34,413 bases of DNA. Origin: Candidatus Iainarchaeum sp. GTDB lineage: Archaea > Iainarchaeota > Iainarchaeia > Iainarchaeales > JAFCCW01. Position numbers and translations under genes: made by a program. Shown here one piece after another: positions 7,803 to 28,522 of this stretch (within the stretch, counting starts at the first letter, position 1; each line of letters begins with the position of its first letter). The DNA is taken from positions 1 through 34,413 of the forward strand of contig JAFCCW010000007.1 of NCBI GenBank assembly GCA_017609985.1. The letters are read 5' to 3'. The notes under the pieces are model-generated. The model did not search any database. It was not told where the DNA came from and saw only the letters and a program-made list of their open reading frames with translations.

Positions 7803-7998
7803 CGGGTCCGGGGAGATTCGAACTCCCGACCTACTGCTTGCCCCGACTAACCGGTTTTTGCCGGCTCGCTATCCCGCAAGCGGGATGCGCCCGTTCGAGT
7901 TTGCTCGAACTGGGTTTTGGAAGCGAGTCCTCCGCAGAGGGTGAGTGCTCCGAAAAAGCCGTAGGAGGCAGTTGCCCTATCCTCTAGGCTACGGACCC
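7803..7998 (-). tRNA. tRNA-Arg(CCU) with an intron at position 37/38 (exon1 7998-7962, intron 7961-7839, exon2 7838-7803)
   Basis: Acceptor GGGTCCG/CGGACCC; D-arm TAGCCTAGAGGATAGGGC; anticodon stem ACTGC/GCAGT with loop CT-CCT-A|A; T-loop GTTCGAATC; mature length 73 nt. Confidence 0.93.
7839..7961 (-). other. 123-nt archaeal tRNA intron with bulge-helix-bulge motif
   Basis: Central helix CUCC/GGGG, bulges UA|C and CA|A, outer helix GGCU/AGUC. Confidence 0.88.
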
Positions 7999-10062: not shown

Positions 10063-11169
10063 TTATTGTGGTTTTGTTGGTCTCTTCAAGGGTTTTCTTT
10101 TTCCAAAGCCTGCTTTTGGAGTCCTGTTTTTGTGCCTGTGTTTTTGTCTTGGTTTGTGTTTTGCTTTGCTTGAAGTATGTGGTTGATGTTTTGTTTTCCC
10201 TGAAGTGTGTGTTTGGTGTCTGGGTTTTGTTTTCCTTGAAGTATGCGGTTTGTGTTTTGTTTTTTCTGCAGTGTGTGTTTGGTGTTTTGTTTCTGGTTTA
10301 TCTATCCCTGGATTTGAAATTTGGGCTCTGTGTCTTTTTTTTGGATTGTTTATTATTGGTCTGTCTGGCCCTGCAAGATCTTCTGCTCTTTTCTCAAGCC
10401 ATGCAACAAGCTCTTTGGAATTATTGCTTTTTCCAAAAAAGTCTTCTCTTGCAGCTATTGCTAGCTTTCCCGCAAGAGCTCTTGATATTTTTCCCCTGTT
10501 TCTTCTTGGAACTTTTTTAAGTAGCGGGTGCTGGAATATTACTCCGTGCTTTGGACACTTTGTTCCCTTTTTGAGATGCGAGAACAATGCCTTTTCCGCA
10601 CCCAACACTTGTATGGTTGAAGAAGGCATTTTTGCAAGCCTTTCCTTGCTTCCTGCTTCTGCTAAAAGCTTTGCTCCAATGTTTGCTCCTGCAAGAGCAG
10701 TAAAGTTTGGCATTTCTTTACTCATTTCTTTTTCAATGTAATCAGCAATTTCTTTTTTCTCGTCTCTTAATGCGAGAGATTTTTTTGCTGCTTCTTTTAT
10801 TCTCTTGAATGTTTCTTCATCAAACTCTGCGCCCATGCTCTTGCTTGCTGCCTGAGAAATCTTTTCAGCGCTTTCACTGCTTTGCCCTGTTTCCTCAATT
10901 TTTTCAACAGCGAAATTTTCTCTGCTTCCCAACTCTGCAACAAGCCTGATGTATGTTTCTGAATTGTTCGCTGTTCTCTGAAGCTCTGGAAAGTGGCCAC
11001 CATACCATTCAATGACCTGTTCTGCCAGAAGATTAAATGCGTCATCAAGGTCCTGACTTAATCCAACGGCTCGCACAATGCTCTGTTCTTTGCCAGAGTA
11101 TTTTTCTTCAACTTTCTTGCGCGCTTTTCCGAGAAGCTTTTTTCTCAAAGCACCCATGTCTTTTGCCAT
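10063..11169 (-). CDS. nop5: C/D box RNP protein Nop5 (Nop56/58) with repetitive basic C-terminal tail
   Basis: EWYGGHFPEL, MPNFTALAG, MPSSTIQVLGAEKALF, PKHGVIFQHP, RGKISRALAGKLAIAAR; adjacent to flpA. Confidence 0.95.
   Translation of the reverse strand: MAKDMGALRKKLLGKARKKVEEKYSGKEQSIVRAVGLSQDLDDAFNLLAEQVIEWYGGHFPELQRTANNSETYIRLVAELGSRENFAVEKIEETGQSSESAEKISQAASKSMGAEFDEETFKRIKEAAKKSLALRDEKKEIADYIEKEMSKEMPNFTALAGANIGAKLLAEAGSKERLAKMPSSTIQVLGAEKALFSHLKKGTKCPKHGVIFQHPLLKKVPRRNRGKISRALAGKLAIAAREDFFGKSNNSKELVAWLEKRAEDLAGPDRPIINNPKKRHRAQISNPGIDKPETKHQTHTAEKTKHKPHTSRKTKPRHQTHTSGKTKHQPHTSSKAKHKPRQKHRHKNRTPKAGFGKRKPLKRPTKPQ
10171..10296 (-). repeat. Four imperfect 30-36 nt tandem units encoding K-T-K-H-[QK]-[TP]-H-T-[SA]
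   Basis: Plus-strand units start TGAAGT/TGCAGT at 10171, 10201, 10237 and 10267. Confidence 0.85.
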
Positions 11170-11338
11170 GTTATAACCTTGTTTGCAAAGTGTTTTAAAG
11201 CTTCTAACCTGAGTCAAATCCGCCTCTATTGCTGGGTCTCGAATGATTCTCTGTTTCAGTATTGCTTTTATTTGGTTAAGCCTTGAAGCCCTCTTTTTTT
11301 TGGAATGAATTTTTCTTGCCTTTCAAATATTCTTGGCA

Positions 11339-12274
11339 TTATTCAAGCACTCCTGTTTTTCCTTCCGCCAGTTTTATTTTAATTCGATTAAGCCTGTGTT
11401 TAACTTGTCTTGAGCGAGCTTTTTTCAATGCTTCTTCAACTCTTTCAATTGCTTTTTTTATATCTCTTGGATTAAACACAATGTTTCCTTCTGTTTCAAA
11501 AATTGTGAATGCAATAAACCTTTCTGGGTTTGATTGGACTATCTGATTTACAAGTCTGGGGGTTAATCCTGTTTCCTGTGCAATTTTTCTTGTTCCTTTT
11601 CCCGGAGAGTTTGCTATTGGTCTGAAAACTCTTTTTGCAAGGCTGTCTCTAAATTCTCCCGCGAGATATTTTAACCAGCCACCATATCCTGCGAATGTTT
11701 TTCCATTAACTTTTGTTATCGAAAGTCTTCCATATAGTCTATTGAGTTCTTCTGAAAAGTTTCCTTTATCAATTGGAGCTCCCGATTCAATTGCTCTTTG
11801 AATTATGTTAGTGTCTCTTTCAGGATATGTTCCTGGCGGGGCTGTCAGCATACTTATGTTGTGTCTTTCTTTCAAATATTCTGCCCAACTCCCATGCCCT
11901 GCAAATCTTTTGCCTCTTATTGTTTGGTTTCTCACTCTTGAGTAAAGATTTCTTAGTCGCGAATGTTCATCCCAGTAACCAGCATCCATTTGTGTCCCTT
12001 TCTGGATTTCTTTTTCGACAAGATTGTGGGTTTGTTCATGATATGTTCCTTCCATCGCAGTAAGAGAGTTTATCCCGTGCTCTTGCTCCAGATACTTGTA
12101 CCATGTACCGTGTCCTCTGAATGATTTTCCCTTTTTTCTCTCTCGTCTGACACGGTGAAGAAGCGTTTTCAACGAACTTTTGCTTTCCCAGTGCCCATAG
12201 TCCATTGGCAAGCCTGCTTGAATTCTTTTTTGTATTTGGGAGTGCGTTCTCGCGTGGCTTGGTCTTGCAGGCAT
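11339..12274 (-). CDS. Hypothetical protein with three 72-aa tandem repeats and a C-terminal HTH-like region
   Basis: Repeats aligned at G21/G93/G165, consensus I..G..[MI]D.G.W...L..LY.R.....GK.F.G[HY]G.W..YL; HTH-like segment TRKIAQETGLTPRLVNQIV. Confidence 0.8.
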   Translation of the reverse strand: MPARPSHARTHSQIQKRIQAGLPMDYGHWESKSSLKTLLHRVRRERKKGKSFRGHGTWYKYLEQEHGINSLTAMEGTYHEQTHNLVEKEIQKGTQMDAGYWDEHSRLRNLYSRVRNQTIRGKRFAGHGSWAEYLKERHNISMLTAPPGTYPERDTNIIQRAIESGAPIDKGNFSEELNRLYGRLSITKVNGKTFAGYGGWLKYLAGEFRDSLAKRVFRPIANSPGKGTRKIAQETGLTPRLVNQIVQSNPERFIAFTIFETEGNIVFNPRDIKKAIERVEEALKKARSRQVKHRLNRIKIKLAEGKTGVLE

Positions 12275-12358
12275 CTAATCAATAATGTTTTTCTAAAATT
12301 AAAGCCTTTTCCTTTCCCCCGATTCTGTTTAAAACCTTTTTCCATGCAAATTTATTCT

Positions 12359-13855
12359 ATGCCAAAAGAAGAAACAGTCAATCTTGCCCTGCGACGCGGT
12401 CTGTTTTATCCTGCTGCTGATGTTTATGCTAATGCTCCAGGGGGCTTCTGGGATTTTGGTCCAGAGGGAAGCAAGATTCGAAGAAACATTATTCAGCTCT
12501 GGCGTTCTGAGCTAGTTGAAAAAGAAGGCTTTGTTGAAATTCACGGGGCACAAATTCTGCCAGAAGATGTTTTCAAAGCCTCAGGTCATCTTGAAAACTT
12601 TAATGACCCGATTGTTCAGTGCAGGAAATGCAATTCTTTAAACCGCGCTGACAAACTTATTGCTGACAAGATTGATGACATTGTTCCAGAGAGCCTTGCT
12701 ACTCCTGAATTAGACAAAATGATTGAAGAACACAAAATAGAGTGCCCAAAATGCAAAGCTCGCGATTTCAATGAGGTTAAAAAATTTAACATGATGATGA
12801 GGGTTGACATTGGTGCAACCGGCGACCAGCCATGTTATCTTCGCCCGGAGACTTGCCAGTCAATTTTCCTTGACTTCAAGCGTCTTTACCAGCTTCACCG
12901 AGGAGATCTTCCATTAGGAATTTCTCAGGCAGGAGCTTCTTTCAGAAACGAGATTTCTCCGAGAAACACTCTTCTCAGGGCACGTGAGTTTGGACAAATG
13001 GAAACAGAAATTTTCTTTAATCCTGACAAGATAGATGAAGTGCCTCAGTGGGGTGAAGTGAAAGACTACAAAATCAACTTAATGCTTCTCGGCAAGAAGG
13101 CGAAGGGAATTTCTTGTGAAGAAGTTGCAAAGAAAAAAATTGTTTCAGGAAAACTTGTTGCTTACTATATTGCTCGCGTCCAGCAATTGTACGAGAAATA
13201 CAATATTCCTGTTGAAAAGATGCGTTTCAGGGAACTTGACAAGGACGAGAAGGCTTTTTATGCAAAGGAAACATGGGACTTTGAAGTTGAAACAGACCTT
13301 GGCTGGATAGAGCTCATGGCCTGCAATTACAGAACAGACTATGATCTTGCAGGACATTCAAAGATTTCAAAGAAAGACTTGATGGTTAATGAGGGCGGCA
13401 AGAAATTTACTCCCCATGTCTTTGAACTCTCAGCAGGAATTGCCAGAACATTTTATGTTGCTTTAGACCTTGCTTTCAGAAAAGAAAAGAGGGGAGGCGA
13501 AGAAAGAATTTTCCTTGACTTTCCTGCCCGAGTCTCTCCCTATCTTGTTGCTGTTTTTCCTCTTGTCAAGAAAGACGGCTTGTTTGAGAAAGCCCGTGAG
13601 CTGTTTGAAGAACTGAACGAGTCTTCTTTTTCTGTTTTCTTTGACGAAAAGGGAAGCATTGGAAAGCGTTATGCGCGCGTTGACGAAATTGGAGTGCCGT
13701 ATGCTGTGACTTTTGACTATGATTCAATGAATGACAAAACAGTTACTCTTAGAGACCGCAACTCAATGAATCAAAAGCGTGTTAAAGTGAAAGAGCTTTC
13801 TGAAATTCTCTGGAAGCTTTCAACGCAAAAGCTTTCCTTCAAGGACATAAAATAG
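12359..13855 (+). CDS. glyS: Glycine--tRNA ligase (archaeal/eukaryotic alpha2 type)
   Basis: GFWDFGPEG, VFKASGHLENFND, YLRPETCQ, FRNEISPR, GSIGKRYARVDEIGVPY; start taken at ATG 12359. Confidence 0.96.
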   Translation: MPKEETVNLALRRGLFYPAADVYANAPGGFWDFGPEGSKIRRNIIQLWRSELVEKEGFVEIHGAQILPEDVFKASGHLENFNDPIVQCRKCNSLNRADKLIADKIDDIVPESLATPELDKMIEEHKIECPKCKARDFNEVKKFNMMMRVDIGATGDQPCYLRPETCQSIFLDFKRLYQLHRGDLPLGISQAGASFRNEISPRNTLLRAREFGQMETEIFFNPDKIDEVPQWGEVKDYKINLMLLGKKAKGISCEEVAKKKIVSGKLVAYYIARVQQLYEKYNIPVEKMRFRELDKDEKAFYAKETWDFEVETDLGWIELMACNYRTDYDLAGHSKISKKDLMVNEGGKKFTPHVFELSAGIARTFYVALDLAFRKEKRGGEERIFLDFPARVSPYLVAVFPLVKKDGLFEKARELFEELNESSFSVFFDEKGSIGKRYARVDEIGVPYAVTFDYDSMNDKTVTLRDRNSMNQKRVKVKELSEILWKLSTQKLSFKDIK

Positions 13856-27378: not shown

Positions 27379-27852
27379 ATGAATGTAATACATTGGGGTT
27401 TTTTATTGGGGTTGGGAAATCATAATTTTAAGACAGTTGCCTTTTTTTGTTTTGCAATACTTTTCCTTTTAGGCAGTGCTTTTGCCTGGTGGGATAACAG
27501 TTGGGGATATCGGCAGAAGATAACAATCAACAGTTCCCAGGTTCCCTCAGACCAGGTTGATTTTCCAGTTCTAGTTGACATTAATGTTTCTTCAAACAAG
27601 GTTTTTCTCCGCGCACTTTCTGACGGGAACGACGTTGCTTTTATTGCAAGCGATGACTTGACTCAGCTTTCTCACGAGCTTGAGCATTTTGATTCTGATG
27701 GAAACCTGACAGCATGGGTTAAAATTCCTTCGCTTTCAAGTTCTTCCGATACACTAATTTACATGTATTATGGGAACTCTTCTGCTTCTTCCCAAGAGGA
27801 TGCATTCAATGCCTGGGACTCAAATTACGTGTCTATTTTGCACATGAATGAG
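27379..27852 (+). pseudogene. 5' part of a secreted DUF2341 protein, truncated by fusion to an ATPase fragment
   Basis: Signal peptide ...SAFA|WWDNSWGYRQKITI, DFPVLV, AWVKIPSLS, YMYYGN, then LHMNE followed by an abrupt switch. Confidence 0.75.
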
Positions 27853-28522
27853 ACAGGCTCTGGAAAAACAGTTTTTTGTCTTAATGCGCTTTACAATGCC
27901 TGCAAGCAGGGTTATCGTGCATTGTACATGTCTTTTGAAGAGCCCGAGGACAGGCTTGTTTCGCATATGCAAAATTTCGGGTTTGATGTTCAACCATTTA
28001 TTGACAAGGGCACTCTTATAATAAAACGATTTTCTGCTCTTGATATTGCAAGAAGTGTTGAGGCTCTTCTTTCAGATGCAAAGAATGAATTGCTTGTTGA
28101 TGTTCAGCCGATTCTGATTCCTGAAGAATTTAAGGCAGATATTGTTGTAATGGATTCTCTTTCTTCAATAGCTTCTGCTTTTTCAGGGGAAGAGTATAGG
28201 TTCAGAATTTTACATGGAGCAGCTTTTTCGCTATCTTGAATCTCATAAGATTACTTCTCTTCTCATTCGTGAAACATCCCGTCCAACCCATATTGGGATT
28301 TCTTTTTCCGAAAAGGGTGAGGCAATTTCATTCCTTTCAGATGGGATAATTGCAATATACAATGTTTTTTATAAAGAAGGGCACAGGGGCAGGGGAATTG
28401 AAGTTCTTAAACTTCGTGGTTCAAAGATTGACAGGCGAATTGTGGAAATGGATATTCTTGAAAAGAAAGGAATTGTTGTTTTCCCAAAAAAGCAGTTAAA
28501 GGGAAGCTATACTTTGACCTAG
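27853..28522 (+). pseudogene. KaiC/RAD55-like ATPase lacking its N-terminus, with a frameshift at about 28208-28211
   Basis: TGSGKT, YMSFEE, VVMDSLS in one frame; LSDGII...RGIEVLKLRGS...GIVVFP in the 28214-28522 frame. Confidence 0.8.

Follow-up and report, generated by a model that had tools for sequence, protein, structure and literature searches.

DPANN archaea have tiny genomes in which many genes are unannotated, and the regulation of their transcription is little understood. The gene described here recalls several known systems. The homing-endonuclease-associated repeat PF18780 (HNH_repeat) is found, like the family reported below, in small proteins made of tandem helical units, each ending in an aromatic-Gly-Ser-Trp turn that leads into a short helix; PF18780 proteins are archaeal and bacterial, and in our family's archaeal phylum both kinds of protein have a scattered distribution. 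Myb/SANT proteins, which we take to be similar in general layout, are basic and carry two to three or more small helical domains with a regularly spaced Trp/aromatic core, joined by linkers. A further parallel is presumably offered by the DNA-binding arms of free-standing homing endonucleases (NUMOD plus HTH, I-TevI), in which a string of modules ends in an HTH and whose genes are inserted between conserved genes. Sigma-70 region 2, which enters this account through one fusion protein, is a promoter-DNA and RNA-polymerase module.

The window, by which we mean the whole stretch of 34,413 nucleotides analyzed here (contig JAFCCW010000007.1 of Candidatus Iainarchaeum sp., from a genome of 1.16 Mb in 37 contigs and 86.6% complete), carries archaeal genes for fibrillarin, Nop5, NMD3 and an archaeal-type beta-CASP nuclease. 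At positions 11339-12274, on the minus strand, a single ORF encodes a protein of 311 aa (P0001); the gene has a GC content of 0.40 and a GC3 of 0.29, both of which match the neighboring genes, and a genome-wide profile search found it to be single-copy in the source genome. The public gene model (P0002) has 288 aa and starts at M24 of P0001. Because residues 1-23 align with the N-termini of two relatives (P0005 and P0007) and build helix 1 of the first repeat unit in the structural model, we place the true start at M1 (position 12274) rather than at M24. A spacer of 84 bp (12275-12358) separates this start from the divergent glycyl-tRNA synthetase (GlyRS) gene, which begins at 12359, and a TATA-like AT-rich stretch read on the minus strand at 12294-12303 (TTTAATTTTA, −29 to −20 from the ATG) is a putative promoter element. 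On the other side, 121 bp (11218-11338) lie between the stop codon and the start of the Nop5 gene on the same strand, and no tRNA or Rfam family adjoins the repeat gene, the 121-bp spacer included. We conclude that the repeat gene is a real, putatively expressed gene for a strongly basic protein.

The first-pass annotation, made from the letters of the window, had described three tandem repeats with an exact period of 72 aa at 11651-12247, which corresponds to residues 10-208 of P0001 and is the repeat region. The 72-residue diagonal of P0001 holds 51 identities, whereas 1000 shuffles averaged 27 and never exceeded 36, and the tandem repeat is thereby borne out. The exactness of the period survived in part: G21, G93 and G165 are spaced by exactly 72 residues, but unit 3, which is more diverged than the other units, carries a 2-residue deletion in the alignment, so that for this unit the period is exact only in the first half. 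The three units, all on the minus strand, lie at 12038-12253 (unit 1, aa 8-79), 11822-12037 (unit 2, aa 80-151) and 11612-11821 (unit 3, aa 152-221), and score 79, 83 and 44, respectively, with an HMM of the unit. Units 1 and 2 are identical at 32/72 residues. The identity between units at the DNA level is just 30-52%, which argues that the duplication is old, and the unit closest to unit 1 of P0001 is unit 1 of P0005 (61% identity). The F.G.G.W..YL core that had been noticed in the repeats is real, with F52, G54, G56, W58 and Y61 each at least 90% conserved across 30 relatives.

AlphaFold2 returned a pLDDT of 41.5 for P0001 without an alignment, and a mean pLDDT of 82 with a pTM of 0.47 when an alignment of 30 sequences was supplied. 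In the latter model the units are at 84-97 (90-97, 87-94 and 84-90 for units 1, 2 and 3), the two linkers at 58, the tail at 65-70 and the final helical hairpin at 86-93. Each unit is modeled as a 13-residue helix, a short helix with an invariant Trp and a 12-residue helix, after which come a tight K-x-G-K turn, a one-turn helix (SF.G), an H-G-S/T loop and a last helix of 9 residues that begins at the second Trp. Local confidence is thus high although the pTM is low, as would fit domains that are separate from one another and strung on flexible linkers like beads, and the three units are accordingly predicted to be independently folding helical domains joined by flexible 12-residue linkers. 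Fold searches with the whole-protein model either gave nothing at E≤1e-3 or matched only at the C-terminal hairpin; for the whole model Foldseek listed only helical repeat scaffolds, all of them non-significant (best E 0.24).

The repeats are followed by a C-terminal tail, in which a wHTH-like segment had been proposed. The candidate segment (aa 224-248, 11531-11605 on the minus strand, containing TRKIAQETGLTPRLVNQIV) is modeled as helices at 224-235 and 239-248 with a pLDDT of 65-70, and a C-terminal helical hairpin is predicted at aa 269-303 (11366-11470, minus strand; pLDDT 86-93). The segment does have the look of an HTH by eye, but the tail matched no sigma or HTH model, its best matches (KORA, E 0.057; MRB1590_C, E 0.03) are both far below the cut-off, and the residues of the putative wing (254-267) have a pLDDT under 50. 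Among the homologues the tail is common only to P0005, and a search with the tail alone across 215 genomes gave only matches at E 1e-3 to 8e-3, in unrelated ORFs.

P0001 had been called an orphan, and this did not hold. An exhaustive search of 1.84 billion representatives with P0001 yielded 51 proteins at the threshold of E≤1e-3, 20 at 1e-10 and 4 at 1e-30; one of the 51 is the window's own shorter model (P0002), and three long proteins (P0032, P0048 and P0049, 921-3059 aa) were left out on account of low-complexity repeats and implausible Pfam patterns, which leaves 47 credible relatives, or 48 family proteins when the query is counted. Word-indexed searches found only the gene's own model when P0001 was used alone, and only P0035 and the own model when the family alignment was used. 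A unit HMM, iterated from the three units of P0001 and then run over the 48 proteins, found 144 units with the consensus ERLHSLIAKAIQKGTPLSAKHWRKSKEPVTGKSLKSLYRLARRRKVNGKSFFGHGSWYKYLEKEHGVSPL. The repeat number varies among relatives, as a search of this kind had been proposed to reveal: 3, 9, 24, 7 and 5 proteins have one, two, three, four and five units, respectively. Units alone make up 37/48 proteins, and an extra region of at least 80 residues is present in 11/48. The nearest unit sits in the same protein for just 18/144 units, which argues that the units are old and individually constrained. No notable Pfam match was found in the 50 relatives scanned, and eight protein clusters looked up for the relatives have one or two members each and are named "hypothetical protein" at most.

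All relatives that could be placed are from DPANN archaea. The family profile matches 8/215 genomes of the source phylum, representing seven families plus the source's own (1/58 when high-quality genomes of the phylum are considered), and 5/401 sampled genomes of a second phylum, centered on a Candidatus Micrarchaeota genome; some of the second-phylum genomes have several family copies, on different contigs. We also scanned DNA with a degenerate pattern for FFG[HY]GxWxxYL, which demands one exact motif and so gives lower bounds: true members account for at least 6/32 genome loci and at least 8/37 metagenome loci, and for 0/5 viral loci. The six true genome loci are from Micrarchaeota, Norongarragalinales or Iainarchaeum, and the other 26 are bacterial and represent chance matches, as do the non-member loci of the metagenome and viral sets. 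The motif strings FFGHGSW, FFGHGNW and FFGYGSW were absent from the literature searched, and a search of the literature on Iainarchaeota and Micrarchaeota for repeats and homing endonucleases returned no paper. The unit defines a small undescribed family in Iainarchaeota- and Micrarchaeota-type genomes, so far confined to DPANN, and the family is accessory and patchy in distribution.

The annotation had further remarked that the core loosely recalls PF18780, and we compared the two families by several routes. PF18780, for which the match threshold is 26 bits, gave no match at E≤10 to P0001 or its three units, no match at E≤1 in the source genome, and none among relatives (0/50 at E≤0.01; 0/30 at E≤10); the same model found true members in 4/215 genomes of the source phylum. 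An hhalign comparison of the 144 family units with 11 PF18780 units taken from those true members, the latter being a shallow profile, aligned 9 columns (GSW..YL with GSW..AL) at a probability of 1.3% (P 0.04); the global mode gave a probability of 0.3%, and hmmsearch produced no significant match whichever side served as the query. When units 1-2 were used for a language-model search, PF18780 clusters came second and tenth (score 0.78), which we treat as a lead only, and the lead was not reproduced when the search was repeated with the relative P0012. Since these sequence tests failed and no family member has a nuclease, membership of PF18780 was rejected and the suggested kinship was not sustained. 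In the table of a 2021 modelling paper (PMC8078820), no close solved template is given for PF18780. The PF18780 proteins of the phylum include small free-standing ORFs at four loci (L034, L035, L036 and L038, in genomes G079, G181 and G165) that carry two PF18780 repeats and are Cys/His-rich at the C-terminus, which is HNH-like by eye; these ORFs adjoin housekeeping genes, and one follows an ORF that resembles the RFC small subunit by eye.

Other libraries agree that the repeat is a candidate new one, as had been proposed. P0001 has no significant match in Pfam or NCBIfam; PDB sequence searches with P0001, the family profile and the unit profile returned nothing significant; and Myb, SANT and helix-hairpin-helix models had no Pfam match up to E 10 in P0001, its units or 30 relatives. 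By sequence, the unit resembled none of the known DNA-binding families. DUF3102 (PF11300) reaches 17.1 bits on P0001 against a cut-off of 24.4, and the best scores of relatives for DUF3102 and DUF4287 (PF14117) are 17.8 and 19.9 bits (cut-offs 24.4 and 27). These weak matches, in 4/30 and 2/30 members, respectively, fall on the F-G-H-G-S-W..YL segment over about 25-35 residues, and membership of either DUF was not accepted, all scores being below the curated cut-offs.

The composition of the proteins bears indirectly on nucleic-acid binding. P0001 has a pI of 10.2, the family median is 10.05, and the pI is 9.5 or higher in 47/48 proteins. The nearly invariant residues of the unit (W21, F50, G52, W56 and Y59) belong to the core or the turn. 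A basic run occupies unit positions 41-48, with K/R at 57-72% at positions 43, 44 and 48, and the other conserved polar positions are H3, H/Y53, S/N/T55 and H64. None of the conserved polar positions is invariant, and thus no catalytic set is apparent; in keeping with the absence of a nuclease motif from the first reading, a nuclease family match was found in 0/48 family proteins. The variable positions lie in helix 1, the long loop and helix 3. The earlier idea of a fixed scaffold on which the basic helix residues vary was therefore half right, but the basic patch at 41-48 is itself conserved.

Fused domains, for which a search of homologues had also been suggested, turned up in one clear case, but other extra regions gave weak matches. 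A 417-aa protein at L155:1826-3079 (plus strand) combines two family units with Sigma70_r2 (PF04542; 30.4 bits against a cut-off of 24, E 3.4e-7), and against the PDB its sigma region matched region 2 of RpoS/SigA at E 7.6e-6. Sigma-70 region 2 is the only recognizable fused domain in the family and occurs in one protein. A region-4-like HTH can also be seen in this protein by eye. To our knowledge it is unusual for a DPANN archaeal bin to hold a module of the sigma-70 type. The locus is a 3.9-kb contig of a metagenome bin from the second phylum searched, and because the contig is short and comes from such a bin its archaeal origin is uncertain and contamination is possible. A look-alike of the fusion (P0052) had no Pfam or PDB match. 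Elsewhere, a 188-aa member with one unit has a weak HTH_20 match (E 1.6e-4), and the extra region of P0018 has a weak Sigma70_r4 match (E 0.13) and the look of an HTH by eye. The claim that the family binds nucleic acid is thus consistent with the median pI, the conserved basic patch and one sigma-70 region 2 fusion, and binding itself is what we infer from them.

The location of the gene was compared across relatives. In the window it lies between the Nop5/Nop56-58 gene (10063-11217, minus strand; Pfam Nop, 1.6e-64) and the GlyRS gene (12359-13855, plus strand; Pfam tRNA-synt_2b and HGTP_anticodon), the latter with a start, MPKEE..., that is conserved in relatives. Nop5 loci were examined in 29 relatives, one per family, with start-to-start distances extrapolated. 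GlyRS is head-to-head with Nop5 in 19/29 loci, a more distant class-II synthetase lies upstream in the same direction in 4/29, and no synthetase is found within the 1.5-kb flank in 6/29. The extrapolated start-to-start gap between Nop5 and GlyRS is 0-138 bp in 15 of the 19 head-to-head loci and 506-1155 bp in the remaining 4, and it is 1142 bp in the window, where the repeat gene occupies it. Given a gap of at most 138 bp in 15/19 relatives and of 1142 bp here, we consider the repeat gene a lineage-specific insertion. One other wide spacer is filled by a HicB/HicA pair (L094:2268-2736, minus strand, genome G020; HicA_toxin 3.4e-16, HicB_lk_antitox 4.4e-7), and in two further ones there are small unrelated ORFs that matched nothing in Pfam. 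The Nop5|GlyRS spacer thus accepts accessory genes in this group, and the repeat gene here together with a toxin-antitoxin pair elsewhere mark it as a landing site for them. A direct repeat (D2) flanks the gene at 11357-11382 and 12307-12332 with 19/26 bases identical; a reading of D2 as a target-site duplication was rejected as too weak, since 10/300 shuffles reach this value.

Two features of the Nop5 gene itself were seen in passing. Its product ends in a long His/Thr/Lys-rich low-complexity tail (10063-10300, minus strand; KHQTHTAEKTKHKPHTS... repeated), the usual Nop5 tail being Lys/Glu-rich, and the TTG at which the ORF is listed to start precedes by a good distance the point where relatives come into alignment (about residue 36). 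Elsewhere in the window, a full-length Rfam tRNA match (48.9 bits, model positions 1-71) extends over 196 bases at 7803-7998 on the minus strand with no ARAGORN report, which suggests an intron-containing tRNA. At 27379-28522, on the plus strand, two overlapping ORFs of 286 and 102 aa are the halves of a KaiC-type ATPase domain (profile positions 27-138 and 144-230; the first ORF also has DUF2341) and represent a split or frameshifted gene.

The gene neighborhoods of other family members are not conserved and give no functional signal. One member lies between the C and A subunits of an A-type ATPase operon (L028, genome G020), one locus is between MetRS and the thermosome, and another between CobA and transaldolase; two tandem copies are found between Alba and ThiF, three between NifU and pyruvate oxidoreductase, and a further locus adjoins SHMT. 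At several loci the neighbors are MetRS, LysRS, Alba or GlyRS. Two arrangements recur, namely methionine aminopeptidase followed by the family gene (L131 and L134) and the family gene followed by PRPP synthetase (L051 and L161), which suggests vertical inheritance within subgroups. A LAGLIDADG_3 protein adjoins one family member and is 2 kb from another. At L027:4459-6219 (minus strand, genome G168), a free-standing 586-aa protein with LAGLIDADG_3 and HTH_3 domains, for which no PDB sequence match was found, is encoded 162 bp downstream of a family gene, and at L028:1113-4238 (minus strand), in the ATPase operon that also holds a family member, the B subunit contains an intein with a LAGLIDADG_3 domain.

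We hold it slightly better than an even bet that the repeat family protein is an accessory modular DNA-binding protein with a role tied to transcription. DNA binding in transcription is our best guess, given the high pI, a basic patch that is conserved, the arrangement of the domains in arrays and the fusion to sigma-70 region 2; that the ligand would be DNA rather than RNA, and which surfaces would touch it, are likewise conjectural. In such a protein each unit would present its basic patch (R/K, unit positions 41-48) to the nucleic-acid backbone, against which the G-[HY]-G-[SNT]-W loop, capping the last unit helix, would also be set, and the variable helix faces together with the number of units may determine the recognition target. 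The gene is an accessory one, inserted in this lineage into the otherwise tiny head-to-head spacer of Nop5 and GlyRS. A different origin is conceivable, namely that the protein descends from the arm with which a free-standing homing endonuclease binds DNA, has no nuclease of its own, and is distantly akin to PF18780 and maintained as a selfish or domesticated cassette in spacers by conserved genes. The patchy occurrence in 8/215 and 5/401 genomes, the several copies on different contigs of some genomes, the insertion into a conserved spacer here and inside an A-type ATPase operon elsewhere, the LAGLIDADG_3 protein near two members, the true PF18780 proteins in 4/215 genomes of the same phylum, the GSW..(A/Y)L helix start common to both families and the language-model ranks would all fit such a descent. 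We nevertheless regard it as unlikely, because 0/48 members have a nuclease domain, because PF18780 failed to match in the source genome (E≤1) or in 30 members (E≤10), and because neither hhalign (1.3%), hmmsearch nor the repetition with P0012 gave support; moreover, 0/5 viral-contig pattern matches are family members, the recurring synteny in two subgroups points to vertical inheritance, the GC and GC3 of the gene match those of its neighbors, and the flanking direct repeat is weak, 10/300 shuffles reaching it.

Whether the ligand might be RNA was weighed with the same evidence. The high pI is compatible with RNA binding too, conserved aromatics suit RNA as well as DNA, the gene precedes Nop5-fibrillarin on its strand by 121 bp, and other members adjoin MetRS, LysRS, Alba and GlyRS, so that a function in RNA processing or translation, for example with the box C/D RNP encoded just downstream, could be envisaged. 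However, the link to Nop5 is not conserved (15/19 head-to-head relatives have no room for the gene), other members adjoin unrelated genes, housekeeping genes are most of the neighbors in 1-Mb genomes anyway, and the only recognizable fused domain is sigma-70 region 2; an RNA-binding role of this kind is accordingly improbable in our judgment. We think it very improbable that the helical domains serve as a scaffold or adaptor between proteins and bind no nucleic acid: the tandem domains are all-helical in the model and the Foldseek list for the whole model consists of helical repeat scaffolds, though at non-significant E values, but a pI near 10 in 47/48 members, the conserved K/R patch and the sigma-70 region 2 fusion in one member speak for a nucleic-acid ligand, and the flexible linkers (pTM 0.47, linker pLDDT 58) are at odds with a continuous solenoid. 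A bolder form of the modular idea, which we rate a long shot, is that the units, of about 72 residues each, would individually recognize short stretches of DNA or RNA and that arrays of one to five would make up a modular recognition system that can be re-assorted and is found in DPANN only. Stand-alone regulators and a sigma-like factor would both use this system, and it would have reached spacers next to essential genes by spreading as a cassette without a nuclease.

The favored reading, a modular DNA-binding protein, would have consequences that depend on how the units act. The family, which is small, narrow in range and restricted to DPANN, is described here for the first time, and its proteins are built of basic helical domains in tandem. 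What is new is a compact domain, confidently folded in the model, that lies outside all public family libraries and is used in arrays of one to five units, and that is linked through one fusion to a promoter-recognition module of the sigma-70 type, unexpected in an archaeal bin. If the units bind DNA modularly, they would provide a new handle on gene regulation in DPANN archaea and a small scaffold for engineered recognition; if each of them also reads its own stretch, as in the bolder form, the programmable recognition of nucleic acids would gain a new natural scaffold, one that might have an ancestor in common with PF18780. If they do not bind DNA modularly, the unit would be one more lineage-specific domain of unassigned role.

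When set beside the described systems, the family resembles PF18780 in the turn motif (FGSW..AL in PF18780, FFGHGSW..YL here) and differs from it in the length of the unit (54 positions compared with about 72-77) and in the C-terminus, since the PF18780 ORFs retrieved here end in a Cys/His-rich segment with the look of an HNH nuclease, whereas 0/48 of our proteins have a nuclease. Unlike the NUMOD-type systems it has no nuclease domain and no NUMOD match, and its signs of mobility are patchiness and one clear insertion. The unit exceeds that of Myb/SANT by about 20 residues and contains four to five helices; the two are set apart here by sequence. As for the sigma-70 family factors, the Pfam scan of P0001 found no region 2 (PF04542) and the protein is without any sigma region, whereas the relative at L155 carries region 2 alongside its two family units.
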